A stretch of DNA of 27,306 bases from a virus (lineage: Duplodnaviria; Heunggongvirae; Uroviricota; Caudoviricetes), in the IMG/VR virus record IMGVR_UViG_3300000301_000054; one strand, 5' to 3'. The notes under the pieces are model-generated. The model was not told the origin of the DNA. It did not search any database and saw only the letters and a program-made list of their open reading frames with translations. The position numbers were made by a program, and so were the translations under genes. This document shows positions 1 to 26,566 of this stretch, one piece after another; positions within the stretch are counted from its first letter, which is position 1, and each line of letters opens with the position of its first letter.

Positions 1-339
1 CCTTTTCCCTGTATGGACCGAAGGCTGACCGTAGGGGTGTTACGGGGGGTAAAATCAGGAGTTGAATAAATACGAAAAAGGAGGCGACACCCCTCCTTCC
101 CTCCCCACTTATACATACCTGGCTTCTTCGCTATACATGTTGTGTTTTATTCGTGTTTTATCTGTCTCAACCTCTCTATGGGCGTTAATGCACACTCCTT
201 CCAGAACGTTCTATACGGCGACTAATTCTGTTGGTGAATTGGGTGTGTTGTTTTCTCTGTCGGTGTCTGTGGTTTCGTTCGTTTTGCGGTGGTTCTTCTA
301 TGGGGTGTTCTCGTCGTTTTGGTGATTGTTCTTCTCCGT

Positions 340-735
340 GTATGGAGTAATGGCAGGTGGGCGATTCCTTTCGTTATTGTGTTTGAGTTGTTTGTCTGGA
401 GTGTGTGAAAGGCTTTTGTAGTTATTCGTGTATTGGGTAATGGCGTTTCCCGTGATTGTTATGTTTCGTGTCTTTTGGGATTGAGAGAAACCTTGCGGTT
501 ACAGGCTTCGTTGGGGTTTCAGCGGTTCAGGTGTTTCTTCGCTGTTTGGGTAATGGCGTGTCGTGGGTATCGCGCGTATGAATGTTTTCGGATTGCCTGT
601 GAAAGTTAGGTTGGTTGTCCGGTAGCCTGGGGAGAAGAGGTGGGTCTTTTCGGTAGCCTGGGGAGAAGAGGTGGGTCTTTTCGGTAGCCTGCCATAAAGA
701 GGTTGGTTGTTTTTGGTAATGGCATATGTGTTATT
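340..735. repeat. GT-rich block with a periodic GGTAATGGC-type motif (about 4 copies at roughly 90-170 bp spacing)
   Basis: Motif copies near 349, 437, 549 and 715; plus strand strongly G+T rich, almost no A-runs; no credible ORF. Confidence 0.5.
620..692. repeat. Tandem direct repeat, 31-bp unit CGGTAGCCTGGGGAGAAGAGGTGGGTCTTTT x about 2.3
   Basis: Two perfect copies at 620..650 and 651..681, third partial copy 682..692. Confidence 0.85.
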
Positions 736-1192
736 TAGTTGTTTTGTTANNNNNNNNNNNNNNNNNNNNNNNNNNNNNNNNNNNNNNNNNNNNNNNNNNN
801 NNNNNNNNNNNNNNNNNNNNNNNNNNNNNNNNNNNNNNNNNNNNNNNNNNNNNNNNNNNNNNNNNNNNNNNNNNNNNNNNNNNNNNNNNNNNNNNNNNNN
901 NNNNNNNNNNNNNNNNNNNNNNNNNNNNNNNNNNNNNNNNNNNNNNNNNNNNNNNNAGAATTACGGGTATAAGCAGTGATGTGTGAAAACGTCAATTTTT
1001 TAGACCAAATCGGGTGAAAGCGTTGATGTTTCGTTGATCTGTTATTCAGTTGTTTTCTTATTGGTATAAACAACTGTAACCTATTGATATTTAAGGATGT
1101 GATTCCAGGCATGGAAGGGGAGTAGTGGCGATCAACGGATTCTTATAGAAAAGAATCAAATTGTGACCGCCATTATCAATGAGTTGCAACCG

Positions 1193-1762
1193 TTAGTTGT
1201 TCAGATAAACATTTGGAACACGGACGTAGAAGTTCCTGTCGCCGGTAAGTTCCAGAGTAATGTTAATGTCATTACCATTGTCTAGTGTAGCCGTTGCTCT
1301 ATAGAACTTATCCGTCACCTTGTCCTCTATTGTCACCTTCATACATTTTGGTGCAGTCGAACCGTTATTCTCTTTCAGAATAGTTGTCACGAGAGGGCAG
1401 GCTGCTTCTTCAAGAGCAACCTCGTCCTTGTGTGGGATGCCGATGAAGATAATCCAAGCCAGCGACGCAACGATTATGATAAATGGCACTCTGCTGCCTT
1501 TTGTAATAGTCGCGCGCTTCCAGAGATAGACAGGCAGGAGGAATACCCCCCATAGAATTGAAGGTGGTTCACAGCCAGACTCCGATAGAGCCATTCTGTC
1601 AGCTACTAACAAACCGATGGTAGTTACACCCCCAATTATAATAGCGTAATTGGTATACTCTTCCGGCGATACTCCAAAGAAGAAAGGCATGAACGCTAGA
1701 ATCCACGCATAAATGTTATTCAGAGGTTTTGTTTGTTGGTTCTGGGTTTCCATCACATCCAT
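1193..1762 (-). CDS. Hypothetical membrane protein: four predicted N-terminal TM helices plus about 70-aa C-terminal soluble domain
   Basis: 189-aa ORF; hydrophobic segments IYAWILAFMPFFFGV, YAIIIGGVTTIGLLVA, ILWGVFLLPVYLW, VPFIIIVASLAWIIFIGI; AT-rich promoter-like region upstream (1763..1914). Confidence 0.5.
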   Translation of the reverse strand: MDVMETQNQQTKPLNNIYAWILAFMPFFFGVSPEEYTNYAIIIGGVTTIGLLVADRMALSESGCEPPSILWGVFLLPVYLWKRATITKGSRVPFIIIVASLAWIIFIGIPHKDEVALEEAACPLVTTILKENNGSTAPKCMKVTIEDKVTDKFYRATATLDNGNDINITLELTGDRNFYVRVPNVYLNN

Positions 1763-1914
1763 TCCATCACATAAAAATCGCGTTTATATATTATCAATTT
1801 TCTCACTTGTATAACCTAAATACGCATCCGTTTATCAATCCACCTTCCACAAACATCAGCTTTAGCTATGAAAAATAACAATCTCAAAGTGAAAACCATT
1901 ATCATAGGAAACGA

Positions 1915-2178
1915 TTAGATGAGATGGTCTAATTCATCATCTATCATTGCTTTAACACTTGAGTCATTAACCCCGTATTGATTTATGAACCGTTTCAGCT
2001 CCGGTGAAAACTGAAGGTAGATATCGTGAGCGTTTTTCACTGTAGNNNNNNNNNNNNNNNNNNNNNNNNNNNNNNNNNNNNNNNNNNNNNNNNNNNNNNN
2101 NNNNNNNNNNNNNNNNNNNNNNNNNNNNNCGCCACGCATTTCAAGCGCCTTTAGTAGATATGAGTCTTCTTTAAGCAT
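1915..2178 (-). CDS. Hypothetical small protein (interrupted by N run 2046..2129)
   Basis: ATG at 2178 with GGAG 6-7 nt upstream; 36-nt spacer after the upstream gene; true length unknown because of the gap. Confidence 0.35.
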   Translation of the reverse strand: MLKEDSYLLKALEMRGXXXXXXXXXXXXXXXXXXXXXXXXXXXXXTVKNAHDIYLQFSPELKRFINQYGVNDSSVKAMIDDELDHLI

Positions 2179-2214
2179 AAATTCTCCGTTGTCTAGTATG
2201 AAGCGATTGCCGGA

Positions 2215-2514
2215 TTACCATTGCCAGCACTCTAGCCCTTCAACGACCGGTGCACCACAATCAAAATGTACAGAGTCAAAGCCTACATCAAGTACTTTCT
2301 GAATGTTCGCAATCGCGCCCTCGGATATACCATATCGACGCAACTCATCTTTCCAGTCATCGTCCTGTAACCCGGCGTGGACAATGCAACCGTACTCAAT
2401 TTGTGAAACCCAATCCAGCTCATTGCTTGCGATCATGAATCGGCGAGCATCTTCCTCTGATGTATGAGATGAACTGATCAATGCCACCTGGTAGGCTTGG
2501 GTAATGTTCAACAT
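2215..2514 (-). CDS. Hypothetical small protein (about 99 aa from the ATG at 2514; the ORF track begins at a GTG at 2523)
   Basis: GGAG about 8 nt upstream of the ATG at 2514; palindromic leader element directly upstream. Confidence 0.45.
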   Translation of the reverse strand: MLNITQAYQVALISSSHTSEEDARRFMIASNELDWVSQIEYGCIVHAGLQDDDWKDELRRYGISEGAIANIQKVLDVGFDSVHFDCGAPVVEGLECWQW

Positions 2515-2527
2515 TTCAACCACTCCG

Positions 2528-2540
2528 AAACAATTTGTTT
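2528..2540 (-). promoter_or_regulatory. Palindromic leader element AAACAA-T-TTGTTT, 2 nt upstream of the SD of the 2215..2514 gene
   Basis: Perfect 13-bp palindrome; member of a family recurring at 2578, 15079, 15807 and 26517. Confidence 0.5.
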
Positions 2541-2577
2541 TCTTATGTGGCTTATTATCTCAATCAACAAAAGGTAG

Positions 2578-2592
2578 AAAACAAATTGTTTT
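2578..2592 (-). promoter_or_regulatory. Palindromic leader element AAAACAA-A-TTGTTTT; flanking AAAAGGTAGAAAACAA also present at 10175..10190
   Basis: Perfect 15-bp palindrome; 16-nt identity with the leader of the gene starting at 10111. Confidence 0.5.
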
Positions 2593-2675
2593 AGGGCTTG
2601 TGTAAATCAGGAGGGATTGTGTCTATATGAAAATGCCCAGCGTGTTGCCGGGCATTGTGAAGAATGGTTGTTTAG

Positions 2676-4709
2676 TTACTTAACTTGGTGGCCTGGTTTA
2701 GCACCAGCATCCGGGCTTAACAGGAAGATATCTTTTCCGCCAGGGCCAGCAGCCATCACCATGCCTTCAGAGATACCGAAGCGCATTTTACGCGGAGCCA
2801 GGTTAGCCACCATAATTGTGTGACGACCAATCAGTGCCTGTGGGTCTGGATAAGCAGAACGGATGCCTGAGAAGACATTACGCTTTTCACCACCGAGATC
2901 CAGTGTCAGGCGCAACAGTTTGTCAGAACCTTCAACAAACTCCGCGTTTTCAATCAGCGCCACGCGCAGGTCAACTTTGGCGAAGTCATCAAAGGTGATG
3001 GTTTCCTGAATCGGATCGTCTGCCAGCGGGCCAGTAACTGGCGCGGCAGTGGCTTTCACTTCTTCTTTAGAGGCTTCCACCAGTGCTTCAACCTGCTTCA
3101 TGTCGATGCGGTTATACAGTGCTTTGAACGGATTAACTTTGTGCGCCAGCAGCGGTTGCTGGATGCCATCCCAGGTCAGTTCCGTATTGAGGAATGCTTC
3201 TGCACGCTCGGTCAGTTTCGGCAGTACCGGTTTCAGGTACGTCATCAGTACGCGGAACAGGTTAATGCCCATTGAGCAAATCGCCTGCAGGTCGGCATCG
3301 CGACCTTCCTGTTTCGCCACCACCCACGGAGCCTGTTCATCGACATAGCGGTTAGCCAGGTCAGCCAATGCCATGATTTCACGGATAGCTTTACCAAATT
3401 CACGGCTTTCCCATGCTTCGCCAATCACTTCAGCGGCATCAGTAAAGGTTTTGTACAGTTGCGGGTCAGCCAGTTCGCTTGCCAGCACGCCGTCAAAACG
3501 CTTGTTGATAAAGCCTGCATTACGGGAGGCCAGGTTAACCACTTTGTTCACGATATCGGCATTCACGCGCTGAACGAAATCCTCCAGGTTGAGATCGATA
3601 TCATCAATGCGCGAAGAGAGTTTCGCAGTGTAGTAGTAACGCAGGCTGTCAGCGTCAAAATGATTCAGCCAGGTGCTGGCTTTAATAAAGGTGCCGCGAG
3701 ACTTGGACATCTTCGCGCCGTTCACCGTCACATAGCCGTGAACAAACAGGTTGGTCGGCTTGCGGAAGTTGCTGCCTTCCAGCATGGCAGGCCAGAACAG
3801 GCTGTGGAAGTAAACAATATCTTTACCGATGAAGTGGTACAGCTCGGCGGTGGAGTCTTTCTTCCAGTATTCATCGAAGCTGGTGGTATCGCCGCGCTTG
3901 TCGCACAGATTCTTGAAAGAACCCATGTAGCCAATCGGTGCGTCCAGCCAGACGTAGAAGTATTTGCCTGGTGCGTTCGGAATTTCAAAACCGAAGTAAG
4001 GCGCATCGCGGGAGATATCCCACTGTTGCAGGCCGGATTCAAACCACTCCTGCATTTTGTTTGCCACCTGCTCCTGCAACGCGCCGCTGCGGGTCCATGC
4101 CTGCAACATTTCGCTGAAAGAAGGCAGATCAAAGAAGAAGTGTTCGGAATCACGCATTACCGGGGTAGCGCCAGAAACCACCGATTTCGGCTCGATCAAT
4201 TCAGTCGGGCTATATGTTGCGCCGCAGACTTCACAGTTATCGCCGTATTGATCTGGCGCTTTACATTTCGGGCAGGTGCCTTTTACAAAACGATCCGGCA
4301 GGAACATGCCTTTTTCCGGGTCGTACAACTGAGAGATAGTGCGGTTTTTAATAAAACCGTTCTCTTTCAGGCGAGTATAGATAAGCTCAGACAACTGACG
4401 GTTCTCTTCGCTGTGCGTCGAGTGATAGTTGTCATAGCTGATGTTAAAGCCTGCGAAATCAGTCTGGTGTTCCTGACTCATTTCGCCAATCATCTGCTCC
4501 GGTGTGATACCAAGCTGCTGTGCTTTCAGCATGATCGGCGTACCGTGGGCATCGTCGGCACAGATGAAATTAACCTCGTGGCCGCGCATTCGCTGGTAAC
4601 GAACCCAGACATCAGCCTGGATGTGCTCCAGCATATGGCCGAGGTGGATTGAGCCGTTAGCGTACGGCAGCGCGCACGTCACCAGAATTTTCTTCGCGAC
4701 TTGGGTCAT
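2676..4709 (-). CDS. metG: Methionine--tRNA ligase (677 aa)
   Basis: Translation from [29 protein letters not shown] (class I HIGH motif), KMSKS present, C-terminal tRNA-binding domain; near-identical to enterobacterial MetG as recalled. The ORF-track start at 4838 is a 43-codon upstream extension; ATG at 4707..4709 chosen. Confidence 0.95.
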
Positions 4710-4866
4710 AGTAGGCATTACTTCTTTGTAGTGAAAAGGGGCTTGATAGTAACAAAATGGCCTTATGTCTGCCATGTGATAACAGCATTTCTCATAAATG
4801 ATTAAATGTCGTAGCTGGAGTACACTACAAGGCGACAATTGCGCAAATTAAAATAAAGGAGACGGG

Positions 4867-6126
4867 ATGAGCGAGTCCAAATCGCCGGATGCCCTGAGAG
4901 CAATGGTAGCCGGTACGCTGGCTAATTTTCAGCACCCAACCCTGAAACACAACCTGACTACGCTTAAAGCGTTACACCATGTTGCGTTGATGGATGACAC
5001 ACTGCATGTCGAACTAATCATGCCTTTCGTGTGGAATAAGCCTTTTGAAGACCTGAAAGAGCAATGTAGTGGTGATCTGCTCCGTATCACTGGCGCAAAG
5101 GCTATTGACTGGAAGCTGTCGTACAACATTGCCACGCTTAAGCGCGTCAAAAACCAACCAGGCATTAATGGCGTTAAGAACATTATCGCCGTCAGCTCAG
5201 GCAAGGGCGGCGTGGGTAAATCCTCCACAGCGGTAAACCTGGCACTGGCTTTGGCTGCTGAAGGTGCGAAAGTTGGTATTTTGGATGCCGATATCTACGG
5301 GCCATCAATTCCAACCATGCTTGGNNNNNNNNNNNNNNNNNNNNNNNNNNNNNNNNNNNNNNNNNNNNNNNNNNNNNNNNNNNNNNNNNNNNNNNNNNNN
5401 NNNNNNNNNNNNNNNNNNNNNNNNNNCAACTTCACCGGACGGTACTCACATGGCACCGATTATGTCTCATGGCCTGGCAACCAATTCAATTGGTTATCTG
5501 GTCACTGACGACAATGCGATGGTGTGGCGTGGACCGATGGCCAGCAAGGCGCTGATGCAGATGTTGCAGGAAACACTGTGGCCTGATCTGGACTATCTCG
5601 TTCTCGATATGCCGCCGGGCACTGGTGATATTCAGTTGACGNNNNNNNNNNNNNNNNNNNNNNNNNNNNNNNNNNNNNNNNNNNNNNNNNNNNNNNNNNN
5701 NNNNNNNNNNNNNNNNNNNNNNNNNNNNNNNNNNNNNNNNNNNNNNNNNNNNNNNNNNNNNNNNNNNNCATCGCGCTGATCGATGCGAAGAAAGGCATTG
5801 TGATGTTCGAAAAAGTCGAAGTGCCGGTACTAGGTATCGTCGAAAACATGAGTGTGCATATTTGCAGTAACTGCGGTCATCACGAGCCAATTTTTGGCAC
5901 CGGTGGCGCACAGAAACTGGCCGAGAAATACAACACGCAGTTGTTAGGCCAAATGCCTCTTCATATCTCTCTTCGTGAAGATCTGGATAACGGAACACCA
6001 ACCGTTATTAGTCGTCCAGATAGCGAATTTACGGCTATTTATCGTGACCTCGCAGATCGCGTTGCTGCCCAAATGTATTGGCAAGGTGAAGTAATACCTG
6101 GCGAAATCGCATTCCGCGCAGTGTGA
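4867..6126 (+). CDS. apbC: Fe-S cluster carrier ATPase ApbC/Mrp (interrupted by N runs 5325..5426 and 5642..5768)
   Basis: Three segments read [16 protein letters not shown]...[21 protein letters not shown] (deviant Walker A), [15 protein letters not shown]...[12 protein letters not shown], and ...[16 protein letters not shown]...EIAFRAV; segments fall in different frames only because of the N runs. Confidence 0.9.
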
Positions 6127-6132
6127 TAAAAA

Positions 6133-6151
6133 GGCGGTGCAATGCACCGCC
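6133..6151. terminator. Hairpin GGCGGTGC-AAT-GCACCGCC between convergent apbC and the UmuD'-like gene; U-tract on the minus-strand side
   Basis: Perfect 8-bp GC-rich stem; flanked by AAAAA on plus (TTTTT on the minus transcript). Confidence 0.6.
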
Positions 6152-6163
6152 TAATCAGTTCTC

Positions 6164-6626
6164 CTACATCACGGGACAATCATCAAACTCGCCACTTCTT
6201 GCGTCGTTGATAATGTGAGTGATCACACCAAACACGGCATTGCTGCCCGTGCATCCATCGTCATCCTTTGGCAATGCTTCCTTCTTACCGGTTCTTAAAT
6301 CCTCCAGATGCTGACGTGGGTACTTCCGGTATCTTTTTNNNNNNNNNNNNNNNNNNNNNNNNNNNNNNNNNNNNNNNNNNNNNNNNNNNNNNNNNNNNNN
6401 NNNNNNNNNNNNNGCGATATTCCCCATCCAGAGCGCATACAAGCAGAGAACCATCAACCGGGGTAAGTGAGGAATCGACCACCAGCAATGCACCCTGTAA
6501 TATTCCCTCACGATGATGACTATCAGCTGCCCTCATGAAGTAGGTCGCTGAAGGATGTCTAATTATCTGCTGATCAAGAGAAATACGGCTCTCAGCATAA
6601 TCCGCCGCAGGAGAAGGGAAGCCCAT
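6164..6626 (-). CDS. UmuD'-like S24-peptidase-domain protein, N-terminally truncated at the position of the UmuD cleavage site (interrupted by N run 6339..6413)
   Basis: Starts MGFPSPAADYAESRISLDQQIIRHPSATYF...LLVVDSSLTPVDGSLLVCALDGEY, aligning to UmuD from Gly25 onward; C-terminal segment ...AVFGVITHIINDA matches the UmuD C-terminus; SD AAGAGG upstream. Confidence 0.7.
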
Positions 6627-6641
6627 AATACTCGCCTCTTA

Positions 6642-6661
6642 ATACTGTATATACATACAGT
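6642..6661 (-). promoter_or_regulatory. LexA (SOS) box TACTGTATATACATACAGTA overlapping a sigma70-like promoter (TTCAAA-17-TATACT) for the UmuD'-like gene
   Basis: CTGT-N8-ACAG palindrome matching the LexA consensus; 16-35 nt upstream of the ATG at 6626. Confidence 0.7.
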
Positions 6662-6962
6662 ATATGTTGAAGCTATATATTTTTGAACTCTATCTCTTAA
6701 AAAAAGATGTTAATAAGATGCTAACTATTGAAAGGCATAAATATATACAATTCCAACAAACGTTATTTTTAACAAATTTTTTCTCTCTGTTGACTTTTGC
6801 GAAAGCCTTGTCTGGCCTAAATTGCGCGGAAGCTACTTTTTCCTTCCTGAGTTATCCACAGAGTTATGCACTTGCATGCATAACCTATACACACTATCTT
6901 AATTCGCAAGACACTGATGTTGCGGTATTGAAGGTTCATTGGGTTAAAAATAGACATTAAAA

Positions 6963-6990
6963 AGCCCAGTTGACTAGGCTGGGCTTTTTA
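6963..6990. terminator. Rho-independent terminator hairpin AGCCCAG...CTGGGCT flanked by A-run and T-run (bidirectional)
   Basis: 7-bp stem, about 8-nt loop, TTTTT at 6986..6990 and AAAA upstream. Confidence 0.7.
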
Positions 6991-7026
6991 AAAGGAAACA
7001 GAGTTTGCGGCTCTGTTCCTGAGCCA

Positions 7027-7215
7027 TAAGTATCTGGCGACTGAATTAAGATTAACCGAATGTACTGGATTCATCAAGAAACGTTGAGTGGTCATACCAG
7101 GTAATAATGACCATTTACTAAACATCGTTGTTCTCAAAGAAGATTTAAGTCCAGGTTTTTGGTGACTCTAAAACCTTACCTTAACTCGAAATCGTGCCGT
7201 AAGTATCTGGCGACT
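7027..7215. repeat. 16-bp perfect direct repeat TAAGTATCTGGCGACT (7027..7042 and 7200..7215); second short repeat AAATCGTGCCG (7188..7198 and 7310..7320)
   Basis: Read directly; located in the non-coding junction between the UmuD'-like gene and the phage-type gene run. Confidence 0.7.
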
Positions 7216-7289
7216 ACAGATATTGCAACTGCAAAGGCAAGCCCAAAGGTATTTGCAGCTAGGCGCGATAAAACTAAGTGAGGCCTGTT

Positions 7290-7373
7290 ATGGTTAACTT
7301 ACTGTTCAAAATCGTGCCGCCGATGTTCGCGATTATCAAAGCGATCATTGAGTACGTAAACCAGCGTCCATAA
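7290..7373 (+). CDS. Candidate 27-aa hydrophobic peptide MVNLLFKIVPPMFAIIKAIIEYVNQRP
   Basis: GTGAGG SD 6-7 nt upstream of ATG; followed by terminator hairpin 7387..7411 and a T-run; not in the ORF track because it is under 60 aa. Confidence 0.3.
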   Translation: MVNLLFKIVPPMFAIIKAIIEYVNQRP

Positions 7374-7386
7374 CGCTAGTTGCTAC

Positions 7387-7411
7387 AGGCCCCATCAAGA
7401 GCATGGGGCCT
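7387..7411 (+). terminator. Hairpin AGGCCCCAT-CAAGAGC-ATGGGGCCT followed by a T-rich tract
   Basis: Perfect 9-bp stem; T-rich downstream on plus strand. Confidence 0.55.
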
Positions 7412-7428
7412 CTTTATCGTACTATTGC

Positions 7429-8094
7429 TTATTTTTTACGGACTGAGTTGTTCACTGCTCTGGCAATCTTCTCCCGCAATTGCTGCGTTCCGTGGTACTG
7501 AACCGCAATATCTCTCAACTCGTTCACCAGTTCTCGAATCTGGTGATCTTTAAGCTCATTATTTGGGTGATTGGTAACAACTCTGGTTAATTCACCCTTG
7601 TCTTTTGCTCTTACGTATGCAGCTCTTGTGCATTCGACCCATGTATTACCGCCTACATTAACTTCGTAGATTAGGCTGGACTTATCTGTCAATTCGGAAC
7701 AAATACGGGCCGTGGTCTGGCAACTAGAGCATTCGCAGTTATCGCGGAAACCGTGGTCTACTGGCTTCGGTTTCACATCATCAACTTTTTCTACCCTATC
7801 GGAATTTAAATACTTCGAAGCCTTGCTATGCCAATCGCTGGTTTTAGGATCTTGTCCATCCATCAAACGCCAGGCTTCAGCGATTAACTCATAACTAGTG
7901 ACTGTAGCTTCCTGCGCATCACCAATAAGTCGTGTAATCTCTCTTTCAAGCCGACCGCCTAACTCCGTTTTAGTGCAATGTTCTGACCAATCGCCAGCCT
8001 CAAGAAGCGCGAGAATGCTTAAAATATCGTCCAATAGAACGGTAGTATTATCGACTTCCTTCTGAAACTCACCGGCTACTGATTTATGCATCAT
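7429..8094 (-). CDS. Hypothetical phage-type protein (221 aa), last gene of the minus-strand run
   Basis: Start overlaps the stop of the upstream gene by 4 nt; Cys cluster CECSSC. Confidence 0.55.
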   Translation of the reverse strand: MMHKSVAGEFQKEVDNTTVLLDDILSILALLEAGDWSEHCTKTELGGRLEREITRLIGDAQEATVTSYELIAEAWRLMDGQDPKTSDWHSKASKYLNSDRVEKVDDVKPKPVDHGFRDNCECSSCQTTARICSELTDKSSLIYEVNVGGNTWVECTRAAYVRAKDKGELTRVVTNHPNNELKDHQIRELVNELRDIAVQYHGTQQLREKIARAVNNSVRKK

Positions 8095-8744
8095 TCGTCA
8101 TCCTCATCCGAGTCATCCTCATCACAGGATGAGAGTAGTGGGTTAGTCATTCGCCCTACTTGAGTGGCGTAGCCACGCCGACAGAGATTGCGCAGCACAC
8201 TGTATATTTCGAACATCTCGGTTCGTTCATCGCCAACATCAAGCTCAGATGCTATAGCGTGGCATTCAGTCGCGAGAGCCGATATTTTCTGAAATAACTC
8301 TGCATTATTCACTGTTCGACTCCTGCGGCGTTCTGGTAGTGGCATCCAGTGTGTGACATTGCTAATCAGACCATATTCATTAGTTTGAGGATGGTTGCCG
8401 TTATCGTCTCCGTATTTAAGACTCTCCATAAAGCCATAATGCCTATCACCATTAACGCTCACAAAGCCGTAATAAGCAGGTATAACGCCGATCTCACACG
8501 TAATCAGCAAAGGAAAACCAGTTCTCCAATTTAGCTCGCCGATTACAGGCATTCGCTCACTACAGCTTATCCAACCATCCTTAGATGCGGCTGTATTGGC
8601 ATAGGCCTTACGGTGCTTCTGTAGCTCTGCTGCAATCGCTCTCACGACTTCAACTGGTGCCCTTGCAGCAAACTCAATGTTGGTGATCAGCTCATTAAGA
8701 TATTTCTCGCTTGGGTAGCATTTCTTATTGTTAACGGTGGTCAT
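8091..8744 (-). CDS. DUF551-like phage protein with acidic C-terminal tail
   Basis: DGWISCSERMPV...VTHWMPLPE, the hallmark of the DUF551 family common in enterobacterial phages; C-terminal DEDDSDEDDE. Confidence 0.6.
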   Translation of the reverse strand: MTTVNNKKCYPSEKYLNELITNIEFAARAPVEVVRAIAAELQKHRKAYANTAASKDGWISCSERMPVIGELNWRTGFPLLITCEIGVIPAYYGFVSVNGDRHYGFMESLKYGDDNGNHPQTNEYGLISNVTHWMPLPERRRSRTVNNAELFQKISALATECHAIASELDVGDERTEMFEIYSVLRNLCRRGYATQVGRMTNPLLSSCDEDDSDEDDE

Positions 8745-8929
8745 TAGGCAGCTCTCTCAACAACAAGCAATTCGTCGTAGTCATAATCAGTTTCGGAACC
8801 ATCCGTACCGAACAGAGTCACTTTGTCATTTTCCATCCAAAAAGATTTAACCGCACATTGTTGACCTTTAGATGTTATGAGCACATCACCAGGGATTACG
8901 TCTTCAGCGCGAACCTCTAGTGTTCTCAT
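8744..8929 (-). CDS. Hypothetical small phage protein (61 aa)
   Basis: Stop/start overlaps with both neighbours. Confidence 0.45.
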   Translation of the reverse strand: MRTLEVRAEDVIPGDVLITSKGQQCAVKSFWMENDKVTLFGTDGSETDYDYDELLVVERAA

Positions 8930-9486
8930 CGTGCTGCCCCCTCTTTGGTGAAAATGCCTGCTGCAATGCTGTTTATGATGCTGTCAGTGCATGGAGTAGA
9001 AAGCTGGGCATCTCCAGCAATTTTCATGACCTCAACATCCGCATATCGAATACCGAGGTGTATCAGACCGGCTATGCCTGACTTAAGCCGAGCATTTTCC
9101 ATAAACAGATCCTTTGCCCGCTGTTTTTCTGCCTCAAGCTCAACGCGCAACTTCCCTACCGTTAACGCAATCTCCTCGTTCTCCTGGTCGCGGCGTTTGA
9201 TGTATTGCTGGTTTCTTTCCCGTTCATCCAGCAGCGTCAGCACAGTAGCCGGATTGGCTGCGGCGATGAATTCAGCATTGGCCTGCTGTTCCATTTGGAA
9301 ATCTTCATCGAAACCGCTTTCAGGATGCGCTCCTTCAATTCTGCAAATGGGAATATATCCAGCAGCCTCGCGATGAATTAGTGCATCATCACCATCAAAT
9401 CGGCCCTCTCCATACTCGAGCGACCACACACCACACGTTGCTTTCTCTGCTATCTCACGCAGTGCCTGATAGTCAATCTTGCTCAC
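8926..9486 (-). CDS. ead/Ea22-like protein
   Basis: LLDERERNQQYIKRRDQENEEIALTVGKLRVELEAEK, recalled as characteristic of lambdoid Ea22-family proteins. Confidence 0.6.
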   Translation of the reverse strand: MSKIDYQALREIAEKATCGVWSLEYGEGRFDGDDALIHREAAGYIPICRIEGAHPESGFDEDFQMEQQANAEFIAAANPATVLTLLDERERNQQYIKRRDQENEEIALTVGKLRVELEAEKQRAKDLFMENARLKSGIAGLIHLGIRYADVEVMKIAGDAQLSTPCTDSIINSIAAGIFTKEGAAR

Positions 9487-10111
9487 TGGATGACTCCTTT
9501 ACGAAGCAGTTCAGCAATACTTACGCATATCTCTGCGCCTCTAATCAGCCCCGGAACGTTCTTGTTTGGCCCAACTTCACCATCAACAAAATCAATCATC
9601 GCGTTACGAGCCATATCCACGCCCTGCGCACGTACTTCAGCCAGAAAAGCATCGGTGGCTGGAGTTTCTATGCACTGCATTTCATGCAATGTCTGCATGT
9701 CCATAAAATCCCCGTCAGGCTCTGTGATAGTGGCGTTATATGCCGAGTAAATTTTTGACGCTTCATGTGNNNNNNNNNNNNNNNNNNNNNNNNNNNNNNN
9801 NNNNNNNNNNNNNNNNNNNNNNNNNNNNNNNNNNNNNNNNNNNNNNNNNNNNNCGCAGCCTTAGATCGCAATGCCACATTCTCCGCCGCTAATGCGTCTC
9901 TCTGCGCCCGCAACTTCTCAATTTCGGCAGCCATGTAGTAACCAACCATAGCGAAGACGGCAAAAGAGTTGTCTGCCTCATCAGGCGACACTGAGGCCAT
10001 TAGCAGGCCATCGTAAAAATCGTGACTCCCATTGGTGATCGCCACCGCATAGGAGTCGTGGTTCTCGCGCTTGTGAATGAGAACTACGGGATTTTCGATT
10101 TTGTTACTCAT
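9483..10111 (-). CDS. Hypothetical phage early protein (interrupted by N run 9770..9853)
   Basis: N-terminal segment from ATG at 10111; C-terminal segment ends at 9483 overlapping the next start; coiled-coil EIEKLRAQRDALAAENVALRSKAA. Confidence 0.45.
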
Positions 10112-10248
10112 GTGTTTTTCTCTTCTTTGCTGTTACATAAGCACTACCAAGTGCTGGTTATTTTCACAAATAAGAAAAGGTAGAAAACAATTTATTTAAG
10201 GCCACAACTTATGGCCTTTATTTATTCATGCCGAAGGATTTGTAGCGT

Positions 10249-12509: not shown

Positions 12510-13320
12510 ACATCTTCACGCGCATCAGATTTCCATCGACGTTCATCCAGTCACCGGTCTGGCAGTCGTTTGCCCGATACGCAGCTGATAGCACCTCAGC
12601 AGTGCGGTTGATGGTAATAAATTCTTTGTGCGCGAAGAAATGAAGCAAGACACGCAGATCGTCGATGTAGTCCTCTTTGCGATAGTTCACGCTAACGCTG
12701 TCCCGCCAGAAATCAGAAATGCAGTCAGCGATTATCAGCCGCTCGCTGAAACCGTTTGTCTTATTTGTCTTGTGCGCAGGACTCAGCGCCTTAAACAAGC
12801 CATACACGCGCTCAGAGAGATATTTGTGCCTGTCATTCAGCAAATTAAGCATCGTGGGTATGACCGTTTCTGCTTTGAACTCCGGTACACCAACGAACTC
12901 TTTAACCTTCATCTGGTAGCCGGTTCTGTCAGTTTTGATGACTTCCTGTTTGCCCTCTATAAACTGCTCGCGCCACTCATCTCGACGGGAAGCTGGCATG
13001 ATCAGCAAAACGTTAGTCATGTCCGTGACCTTCCTCCAGTACTCGGCCCAAATATTCTGTTTCACCCATTCCAGATCGACTTTATCCAACCAACCTCGAT
13101 TTAAACGCGAGCGATCTTCATCTGGTCGATGGTTTAGTCTCAGCAGGCGATTAATCATGTTGTGGCGTTCGTCGCCATAAACGAAGTCGTGAACCTGATA
13201 CATGAAGGCGATCTCTTTCTCGCACTCGGCCACAATTTCGTGGATGACGTTCATTTCCTGCCGATAGTCGATAGCAGTGTTTGAGTTGGCATCGTCGATG
13301 ATGGAAAGGGCTGTATTCAT
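12510..13320 (-). CDS. Hypothetical protein (at least 270 aa), truncated by N run 12423..12509; immediately upstream of the methyltransferase
   Basis: Long ORF from ATG at 13320 running into the gap; no motif I can assign. Confidence 0.5.
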
Positions 13321-13423
13321 AATTGCACCATTAAGAAGTGATTTGTTTAATGGTGCAATTATTTCAAAAATGAAAAGGTACTAAATAGAAATAAACAGGC
13401 AATCCTTCAAATAAAGGCATTGG

Positions 13424-14095
13424 CTAATCATACTTGGAGGTATTTATCACCAGAATTTTGTTTGTATAAATTTTCTTAATATCCCATGTGACATTACCGG
13501 AATACCATTGACCGTTATATACTTGGTTTCCAGTTGCACCTGTCATTGTTACATAGACAGGTCTGTCGTAATCGGTTCGTCTATAGTTATATACTCCAAC
13601 CATAGCAGGCATTACCGCACATGGATACCCCATATCTATTGTAAATTGAGGGTCAGAAATAGTGATAAGTTTCGCATCAAGGGGCATCATCTCACCGTGA
13701 TACACCATTGCGCCTGCGCTGTTATACATGGCAATGCCATAGCCAGAATGTGGTAACACCATATCAGAAAAAGCATAAACTGTTATTGTTCCGGGGCTAC
13801 CATTTACCTGATGCAATCTGAGAGCATTGTATCCGTTACTATGCTCATGAATAAACATCATGTTCGCCTTATTACTGCTTTTTATGAAAAAAAAACATGA
13901 TTTGTTTGATGGGATTGATGTTTGAAAAACAGAACCTTTAGATGTAGACATTGTCCCTTTATTAATCAGATTTTGCGGAGTAAATTCTGGACTCATCCAC
14001 AAACTTCCATCTGATTGAGTAATTGACATCCCGAACATAATTATCCCCAGTATGTGTATATGTAAGAACCAAGCCCCGTATATAAATTTGACCAA
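13424..14095 (-). CDS. AT-rich hypothetical protein (moron-like); N-terminal hydrophobic segment, Tyr/Gly/Asn-rich body
   Basis: 223-aa ORF in a markedly AT-richer segment; further ORF fragments (14201..14435) broken by N runs 14133..14200 and 14320..14380 may belong to the same or a second gene. Confidence 0.4.
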   Translation of the reverse strand: MVKFIYGAWFLHIHILGIIMFGMSITQSDGSLWMSPEFTPQNLINKGTMSTSKGSVFQTSIPSNKSCFFFIKSSNKANMMFIHEHSNGYNALRLHQVNGSPGTITVYAFSDMVLPHSGYGIAMYNSAGAMVYHGEMMPLDAKLITISDPQFTIDMGYPCAVMPAMVGVYNYRRTDYDRPVYVTMTGATGNQVYNGQWYSGNVTWDIKKIYTNKILVINTSKYD

Positions 14096-15078: not shown

Positions 15079-15091
15079 AAACAAGTTGTTT
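15079..15091 (-). promoter_or_regulatory. Palindromic leader element AAACAA-G-TTGTTT, about 20 nt upstream of the ATG at 15060
   Basis: Perfect 13-bp palindrome; adjacent GTTGTTTTCTTATTGG also occurs at 1049..1064. Confidence 0.5.
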
Positions 15092-15176
15092 TCTTATTGG
15101 CTTTATTGTGATGTGGCATAAAAGGGGAGCAAGCTAAACGTAAAGGTGCAAACTCTCTATTTCGGTCAACGAAACA

Positions 15177-15806: not shown

Positions 15807-15821
15807 AAAACAAGTTGTTTT
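15807..15821 (-). promoter_or_regulatory. Palindromic leader element AAAACAA-G-TTGTTTT, about 24 nt upstream of the TerB-like ATG
   Basis: Perfect 15-bp palindrome. Confidence 0.5.
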
Positions 15822-15876
15822 CTAGTTACATGAATTGCTTACGAAAAGACGGTCAATGCATATGCACTAACAACCG

Positions 15877-26483: not shown

Positions 26484-26516
26484 GTGTTTTTCCTTTTTCT
26501 TTTTTTGGTGCGTTTA

Positions 26517-26527
26517 AACAAGTTGTT
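26517..26527 (-). promoter_or_regulatory. Palindromic leader element AACAA-G-TTGTT upstream of nrdB; GTTTAAACAAG direct repeat at 26513 and 26538
   Basis: Same element family as 2528, 2578, 15079 and 15807. Confidence 0.45.
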
Positions 26528-26566
26528 ATCTTATGTGTTTAAACAAGGCTTACAAATCAAAGAGAA

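Follow-up and report, generated by a model that had tools for sequence, protein, structure and literature searches.

The stretch of DNA analysed here (hereafter the window) comprises 27,306 nucleotides (nt) of the IMG/VR virus record IMGVR_UViG_3300000301_000054, assigned to the Caudoviricetes, and contains a head-to-head pair of genes of housekeeping type, metG and apbC. The limits given for this pair by an earlier note, made from the sequence alone, were exact: metG, for methionine-tRNA ligase (MetRS), occupies 2676..4709 on the minus strand, and apbC (mrp), for an iron-sulfur (Fe-S) cluster carrier P-loop NTPase, occupies 4867..6126 on the plus strand, with matches to the NF001100 and NF008669 models, respectively. 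The metG gene is intact (677 amino acids, ATG at 4709, stop codon at 2676-2678) and runs on the strand of the phage early genes. Its product reaches 1019 bits against the NF001100 equivalog model (cut-off 587), covering 3-676 of its 676 positions, and 163 bits against the MetG C-terminal domain model TIGR00399, and the HLGH and KMSKS signatures as well as the zinc knuckle CPKC...CEVC are visible in the translation, all as in dimeric class I enzymes of the MetG type. Compared with E. coli K-12, the identity is 98.7% at the amino acid and 94.3% at the nucleotide level, with a synonymous divergence (dS) of 0.27 and a ratio of non-synonymous to synonymous divergence (dN/dS) of 0.024. This distance equals the one separating E. 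coli from Escherichia sp. E1V33, and the dS between K-12 and Citrobacter is ~0.75 for the same gene. Nine positions of the MetRS differ from K-12, eight of which are common to the other plasmid alleles.

The apbC frame of the window looks 159 nt too long only because two internal runs of N (5325-5426 and 5642-5768) overstate the missing sequence. Counted against the 1101-nt gene, they stand for 17 and 53 real bases; the 1031 nt that are visible lie in frame with the gene of the related Escherichia phage Cyrano and, together with those bases, add up to the 1101 nt found in all relatives (366 amino acids in the closed ones). The N-free Cyrano copy scores 759 bits against NF008669 (cut-off 348), and the Walker A motif GKGGVGKS and the CxxC-containing CSNCG are readable in the window, which places the product in the ApbC/Mrp family, with two of its segments under N. 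Relative to K-12, apbC has 94.5% amino acid and 83% nucleotide identity, a dS of 1.30 and a dN/dS of 0.027; a similar dS (~1.2) separates K-12 from Citrobacter or Salmonella, and the plasmid apbC is close to no sampled genus. The earlier note had regarded both genes as ordinary chromosomal ones, a view that did not survive the comparison, as they are plasmid alleles with 94% (metG) and 83% (apbC) nucleotide identity to K-12. Among eight to nine plasmid copies the ApbC protein is almost invariant, with dS of 0.02-0.22, and an identical protein (WP_000004356.1) is encoded by plasmids of three species, E. coli, E. albertii and E. marmotae; dN/dS ranges from 0 to 0.027 over the comparisons made, including that with K-12, and apbC is clearly selected in its own right. 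For metG, pairwise dS among the same number of plasmid copies rises to 0.37 with a dN of at most 0.008, dN/dS is 0.006-0.024 among the comparisons made, and all 22 phage-plasmid alleles are intact and distinct. In summary, strong purifying selection (dN/dS of ~0.02) acts on the two genes, neither of which is disrupted.

The 157 nt between the two start codons (4710..4866) form a divergent promoter region, with putative promoters read from sequence. In a sliding-window comparison only the ~50 nt adjoining the metG start resemble E. coli, where a TGnTACTAT stretch may be read as an extended -10-like motif. The remainder is specific to phage-plasmids and nearly invariant: the diversity of the region is 0.017 (0.005 without an E. 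marmotae plasmid) versus 0.16 and 0.096 at the four-fold sites of metG and apbC, respectively, and the 34-nt piece next to apbC has exact matches in 31 viral contigs of IMG/VR. The near-invariance covers 4710-4866 plus ~180 nt at the start of apbC, in plasmids whose genes on either side are 10-16% different at four-fold sites. RNA folding of both strands gave nothing beyond shuffled sequences (z of -0.3 and +0.7), so that a riboswitch or leader RNA as the cause of this conservation is not supported; we read the uniformity as the mark of either a divergent-promoter constraint or a recent sweep.

Each gene is followed by a hairpin. The one after metG (2632..2656, minus strand) starts 20 nt past the stop codon and consists of 10 bp followed by UUUUCAU, with a minimum free energy of -16.9 kcal/mol (z of -4.5, equalled by none of 200 shuffles); the homology with K-12 does not reach this hairpin, which is predicted to be a terminator-like insulator of metG from the next phage promoter. 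The second is a GC-rich hairpin of 9 bp at 6132..6152, between apbC and the convergent humD gene, with a U-tract on the minus strand only, for which it is primarily the terminator of humD, and possibly bidirectional. The proposal that the two genes carry their own terminators holds in that hairpins do lie just outside both of them. As these hairpins fall outside the chromosome-homologous DNA, they cannot be shown to have arrived with the genes.

The nature of the DNA around the pair was revealed by comparison with phage and plasmid genomes. Positions 1-25000 of the window align with Cyrano (OV696614) at 98.7% identity and 89% coverage, and three further Escherichia phage records cover 82-87% of it; the window is also collinear with CMS-2020a and PhiR41_1. 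Seventy-nine complete E. coli genomes contain at least 80% of window positions 1-9000, and all the matches listed are plasmids of 100-120 kb. In closed Escherichia and Shigella genomes the metG-apbC block was found at the identical position on ~200 plasmids of this size, and PLSDB contains it in 196 plasmids, nearly all of which are non-mobilizable and come from Shigella or from Escherichia, with E. albertii and E. marmotae among the hosts. Closed circular relatives of ~108 kb with the pair include Cyrano/pLF82, p4_0.2 and pECOH89, among others. The order in the annotated relatives is hypothetical genes, metG, apbC, an S24 peptidase and ead/Ea22-like genes, followed by a DUF4942 methylase, RNase H, a Dam-like methylase and an exonuclease, and then by DHFR, ThyX, a MazG-like protein, NrdB and NrdA. 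The window holds only the early/DNA-metabolism arm; in the closed relative p4_0.2, ParB-family partition genes are located 10 kb to the left. Cyrano is pLF82, a phage-plasmid of E. coli LF82 that forms virions, detected by electron microscopy and quantitative PCR, with ~5.5 copies per chromosome and a 39-fold induction by ciprofloxacin (PMC9928086).

Similarity and collinearity with closed members across the whole stretch, together with a regulatory motif common to the SSU5 backbone (8 hits in the window versus 0.14 expected), make the window a member of the SSU5-like phage-plasmids. Salmonella phage SSU5 itself matches in the backbone alone (34% coverage, ~80% identity), sharing nrdAB, thyX, dhfr, methylases and RNase H, but lacks metG, apbC and humD. 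The element family and gene order are the same in Cyrano/pLF82 (OV696614/NC_011917), pECOH89 (NC_023916) and the p2009EL-2050 plasmid of E. coli O104:H4 (NC_018651), although the metG alleles of this type of plasmid are separated from that of the window by a dS of 0.1-0.2, and Cyrano differs at the left flank (1182-2214), where the window matches p4_0.2 instead. We consider it highly probable that the window represents the arm for early functions and DNA metabolism of a phage-plasmid of the SSU5 type from Escherichia (as pLF82/Cyrano, pECOH89 and pWPMR2), and that metG-apbC is a cargo captured by the lineage ancestor from an enterobacterial chromosome. In this line, a capture of the genes, one of the options raised in the earlier note, is supported by their location on a closed circular phage-plasmid of ~108 kb as a second metG beside the chromosomal one: in 5426 genomes we found 221 plasmid and 5423 chromosomal places for metG, with a clear identity gap to the window allele between plasmid (95-99%) and chromosomal (93-94.2%) copies. 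With a thyX-nrdB backbone probe, 232 genomes gave 233 plasmid places, so that the block is carried by essentially all members of the lineage in Escherichia. The same probe also detected two chromosomal, not plasmid, places among complete E. coli genomes.

Two other explanations were weighed. The first is an assembly artefact, in which a chromosomal metG-apbC segment was wrongly joined across gaps to unrelated mobile-element contigs, as the 17 runs of N in 27 kb (a count given before that we also obtained) and a third-position GC content of both genes unlike that of the flanks might suggest. Neither junction of the block, however, contains a run of N, as 2130-5324 and 5769-6338 are continuous and each aligns in one piece to closed plasmids, and the identical order over both junctions recurs in 79 complete E. 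coli genomes and in 4 phage records, the joints being those of closed circular plasmids and of independently assembled phage genomes. Moreover, every run of N compared with Cyrano is collinear with it and exceeds by 73-88 nt the bases for which it stands (e.g., 75 N for 2 bases or 102 N for 17), which makes open reading frames (ORFs) across these runs look overlong or frame-shifted, and the alleles are of plasmid and not of chromosomal type. On the grounds of the repeated junction order and the collinear runs of N, a mis-join is rejected, and we give it practically no credit. No more credible is a chromosomal locus with prophages or islands inserted at either side of a native metG-apbC, an idea encouraged by the presence of the phage regulatory motif on both sides (2528 and 10182). 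Homology to chromosomes, as judged with K-12 and the metG loci of at least 80 other species, extends from the metG stop codon at 2676 (at most 10-16 nt beyond) to the apbC stop at 6122-6127, so that an element inserted on both sides finds no chromosomal DNA past either stop codon to be inserted in. The chromosomal neighbours yehE and yehF/DUF4132 are absent from the window, its relatives are 100-120 kb circular plasmids with ParB and phage genes, and a chromosomal metG place was found in essentially every genome of the set of 5426.

Regarding how the pair entered the phage-plasmid, no terminal repeats or transposon ends were found bracketing 2676..6126, nor target duplications at the block ends, and the block does not behave as a transposon or insertion. 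The chromosomal metG-mrp(apbC) pair of the Enterobacteriaceae (b2114/b2113 in E. coli) has the same genes of the same equivalog families in the same head-to-head arrangement, but with an intergenic region of 131 instead of 157 nt that is mostly unrelated. The pair of the window, in turn, lacks the yehE/yehF neighbours, has a 17% diverged apbC and resides on a multi-copy transmissible virus. The composition of both genes differs from that of the surroundings: the GC content at third codon positions (GC3) is 0.606 for the window metG and 0.534 for apbC (measured on the Cyrano copy) versus 0.452 for 17 backbone ORFs, with K-12 values of 0.625 (metG) and 0.619 (mrp). The shift of apbC, and not of metG, toward the backbone agrees with a long plasmid residence of apbC and a later renewal of metG. 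The pair is a mosaic, with an Escherichia-like metG and an old apbC and promoter region deeply diverged from every sampled chromosome. A donor scan of genome contigs gave, among the matches listed, E. coli-like sequences and Escherichia sp. E1V33 as the best ones for metG (~94%), and no close apbC match among those listed, which cover at least 80 species.

The renewal of metG left traces in several plasmids. Tracts identical to E. coli chromosomal alleles are present inside an otherwise ~6%-diverged metG in pECOH89 (725 nt), in an O9:H10 plasmid (275 nt), in a S. sonnei plasmid (344 nt, p < 0.0005) and in the IMG/VR contig IMGVR_UViG_2671180456_000009 (1038 nt). In the permutation test for such tracts the window allele was not significant (p = 0.21), its longest identical run being 126-146 nt, the same as in the inter-species control; with no conversion tract, the metG of the window is of a pure plasmid type, and the recombination signal belongs to the sister plasmids and not to this copy. 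Conversion from chromosome to plasmid is therefore a fact in the lineage, and the reverse exchange, as well as a transient integration at metG, may also take place. In this regard, IMGVR_UViG_2671180456_000009 consists of phage-plasmid DNA up to the middle of metG (~12600-13639) and then of chromosomal metG and yehF-side DNA, which makes it either a plasmid-chromosome cointegrate formed by metG recombination or a chimeric draft contig; its joint was not found when used as a query among complete E. coli genomes. We also observed that chromosomal metG alleles of E. coli (our loci L003 and L123-L126) differ by up to 91 of 2034 nt (4.5%), a diversity that we judge high and that would fit a plasmid-to-chromosome exchange. 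A tentative extension, to which we assign a lesser but not negligible probability, is that of a two-layer module, with ancient apbC and the near-invariant 157-nt region as a core and metG as an active surface of recombination with the chromosome of the host; selection may have acted longest on that core.

The earlier note placed the pair between two accessory regions sharing a family of leader elements. The motif itself, AGAAAACAANTTGTTT, is real, as it occurs (with up to 2 mismatches) at the eight window sites mentioned above, ~20-70 nt upstream of minus-strand gene starts, in each case preceded by a promoter-like stretch and followed by an AGGAAA..ACACATG ribosome-binding context. It adjoins metG on the left (2528-2596), but no copy exists in 6127..7428, and the first one on the right lies at 10155-10228, 4 kb away. 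Shared regulatory sequence thus brackets the pair only loosely, and the motif is a dispersed element of the backbone and not an insertion end: there are 10-13 copies per ~30 kb in Cyrano, p4_0.2 and SSU5 (13 in 27.6 kb of SSU5), and none in chromosomal metG loci. The left copy (2524..2596, minus strand) carries two palindromic 16-nt boxes, AGAAAACAAATTGTTT, at 2528-2543 and 2576-2591, 48 nt apart around a promoter-like stretch; it comes after the metG terminator hairpin and is followed by the Shine-Dalgarno sequence and ATG (2514) of the next phage gene, a homologue of CYRAN_101 (2215..2514, minus strand) that belongs to the backbone, has no NCBIfam hit and would be driven by this copy. The nearest copy to the right of apbC (10155..10228, minus strand) delimits the variable slot on its right side in the comparison with SSU5. 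The two copies have 88.6% and 87.8% identity with positions 6951-7019 and 9689-9761 of the SSU5 sequence, respectively, and 82% over 44 nt with each other. A further box lies at 15079..15094 (minus strand), ~25 nt upstream of a minus-strand ORF start, with similar ones at 15808-15823 and 26516-26531. No match was obtained in Rfam (E up to 0.1) or tRNA scans of the whole window, and the leader is consequently not a known RNA family; most simply, it would be an operator/promoter of phage early transcription units, with a palindrome that would suit a dimeric repressor.

The interval that separates both leader copies measures 7.5 kb in the window, with metG, apbC, humD and ea22-like genes, versus 2.7 kb with unrelated genes (SSU5_099-103) in SSU5, which locates metG-apbC in a variable slot of the backbone. 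The humD gene, for an S24 peptidase (UmuD'-like, P1-type; 6164..6626, minus strand; 220 bits against NF051876, with a run of N at 6339-6413), is part of the same cargo slot. In the E. marmotae plasmid NZ_CP072690 (our locus L086, 5630-6726) apbC is followed not by humD but by der, for the ribosome-biogenesis GTPase Der, a third host housekeeping and translation-related gene in the slot.

Altogether, these data allow us to propose a history for the module. An ancestor of the lineage would have captured metG-apbC, from stop codon to stop codon and with the divergent promoter region, from an enterobacterial chromosome; the module now sits in a variable backbone slot between two copies of the putative phage promoter/operator motif, and tracts of the host chromosomal metG have overwritten parts of the gene in some plasmids. 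The cell would gain in this way a second, multi-copy MetRS and a second ApbC, the effect of the former arising from dosage or from heterogeneous expression, with apbC as a co-captured partner. The MetRS is best read as a functional auxiliary enzyme acting through either of these routes. The pWPMR2 element of S. sonnei offers a close parallel. According to a recent preprint (10.1101/2025.09.12.675607), it is a phage-plasmid of the SSU5 supergroup also present in E. coli CC131, CC23 and CC73, and, as in the lineage of the window, it carries a second metG, whose alleles are highly variable in both. The S. sonnei plasmid LR213459.1, probably pWPMR2-like, has 96.5% identity to the metG-apbC block at the same position, although the window metG lacks the 344-nt K-12-identical tract of that plasmid allele. 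Expression of a phage-plasmid metG has been described to yield an antibiotic-surviving subpopulation predisposed to third-generation cephalosporin resistance (Tam et al. 2024, as summarised in PMC12452169). In E. coli LF82, the apbC homologue CYRAN_99 (annotated as septum site-determining protein) is expressed at 92 fragments per kilobase per million (fpkm) and was classed as a moron, 9-fold over the prophage background (PMC9928086, Table 1 and S1 Table), while the metG homologue CYRAN_100 reaches 16 fpkm and stays near background in LB, DMEM and macrophages (PMC9928086, S1 Table). Given the weak transcription in the lysogen, the main expression of the plasmid metG may be conditional or heterogeneous from cell to cell.

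Several points weigh against this picture. The plasmid metG transcript of LF82 was near background in all five sampled conditions (PMC9928086), which makes a constitutive dosage effect doubtful. The claim on tolerance and persistence comes through a citing paper (PMC12452169) and concerns the S. sonnei allele, whose substitutions G134C, A410T and D565E are absent from the MetRS of the window. The role of apbC on the phage-plasmid is putative, contiguity was judged from closed relatives and Cyrano rather than from reads of the source sample, and no donor is named, as the matches listed included no chromosomes of E. albertii, E. fergusonii, E. marmotae or E. ruysiae.

Other roles for the module must also be weighed. 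It is improbable that metG persists mainly as a homology arm carried along by the element, which could thereby integrate in the host chromosome, exchange alleles with it and mobilise the chromosomal DNA beside it. The long chromosome-identical tracts of several plasmid alleles and the switch from plasmid to yehF-side chromosome inside the metG of IMGVR_UViG_2671180456_000009 would fit such a use, but an arm need not stay functional, which leaves the dN/dS of ~0.01-0.02 of all 22 intact alleles without explanation; besides, a divergence of 6% depresses recombination, no closed E. coli genome has the cointegrate joint, and the contig itself may be chimeric. Far less probable still is that the plasmid MetRS acts as a drug- or toxin-insensitive paralogue conferring target-replacement resistance, as mupA does for mupirocin. 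Resistance through plasmid-borne paralogues of aminoacyl-tRNA synthetases is a known phenomenon, and weak matches to MupA/MupB models were obtained, which reflect only a distant class I similarity. The isoleucyl-tRNA synthetases MupA/MupB and the synthetases of large phages resemble our case in that a mobile element supplies an extra synthetase, yet what is supplied there is a divergent paralogue, as in MupA-like enzymes with altered inhibitor binding, or an enzyme of a viral lineage whose properties have changed, whereas the MetRS of the window shares 98.7% of its residues with the housekeeping enzyme, and all eight of its common substitutions occur naturally in other enterobacterial chromosomal MetRS. 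A benefit for the phage, in which MetRS and ApbC would aid the lytic translation burst and Fe-S enzyme maturation in the way of auxiliary metabolic genes beside nrdAB, thyX, dhfr and mazG, seems somewhat less remote, if still unlikely. The orientation of metG is that of the surrounding early DNA-metabolism genes, the gene is almost silent in the lysogen, and the module is conserved across the whole lineage and not only in clinical clones. On the other hand, early transcription would meet the strong hairpin terminator at 6132-6152 before it reaches metG, with apbC antisense in between, apbC is expressed in the lysogen, and the published phenotype is one of the lysogen (PMC12452169).

The rest of the slot and the left end of the window deserve some comments. 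A perfect LexA box, TACTGTATATACATACAGTA, predicted from the letters at 6643..6662, lies 17 nt upstream of the humD start and is common to humD and a divergent 98-residue ORF (6664..6960) without family hit; the humD homologue CYRAN_98 rises from a log2 value of ~7 in LB to ~12 in macrophages in LF82 RNA-seq data (PMC9928086, S1 Table). The ~800 nt of 6627-7428 are unannotated in Cyrano and p4_0.2 and contain direct repeats, GCC(A/G)TAAGTATCTGGCGACT at 7023 and 7196 and TC(G/A)AAATCGTGCCG at 7186 and 7306, as well as a hydrophobic 27-residue ORF at 7290..7373 (MVNLLFKIVPPMFAIIKAIIEYVNQRP) followed by a strong terminator (7387-7411). They look like an SOS-linked type I toxin/antisense locus, with no Rfam match in 6627-7428. 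From humD to ea22 (6414-9668) the window has ~91% identity to phage P1 in four aligned pieces, which suggests an exchange of modules between P1 and SSU5, the two main groups of enterobacterial phage-plasmids. At the opposite side, window positions 1-750 are non-coding, G/T-rich and strongly strand-biased (GC skew up to +0.47, AT skew of -0.40), with three tandem 31-nt units at 620-712 and repeated units containing GGTAATGGC at 332-562; the conservation is 92-94% in Cyrano and p4_0.2 and weak (~71%) in SSU5. This region may be an array of iterons or binding sites.

The finding as such is already known, since hundreds of public records already carry annotations of both genes and a phenotype of a phage-plasmid metG has been published; no mention of metG or of a synthetase was found in the phage-plasmid survey papers. 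The two-layer history, the chromosomal conversion tracts and the invariance of the control region were not found described, and we regard them as modest extensions and not as a new kind of system. For the scanning of genomes, the lesson is that a housekeeping-looking block inside accessory DNA can be a genuine cargo and not a mis-join. A multi-copy, plasmid-replicating virus with a working essential gene for translation represents a rare case of a core housekeeping gene turned mobile, and the literature ties the phage-plasmid metG to antibiotic survival in epidemic Shigella sonnei (PMC12452169). An old apbC and control region next to a repeatedly overwritten metG with 22 distinct alleles bear on how metG variants arise and spread. 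If exchange ran both ways, a transmissible virus would be a continuous source of metG variants, tolerance alleles among them, and would carry them through Escherichia and Shigella, and the element could moreover mobilise the chromosomal DNA beside metG.

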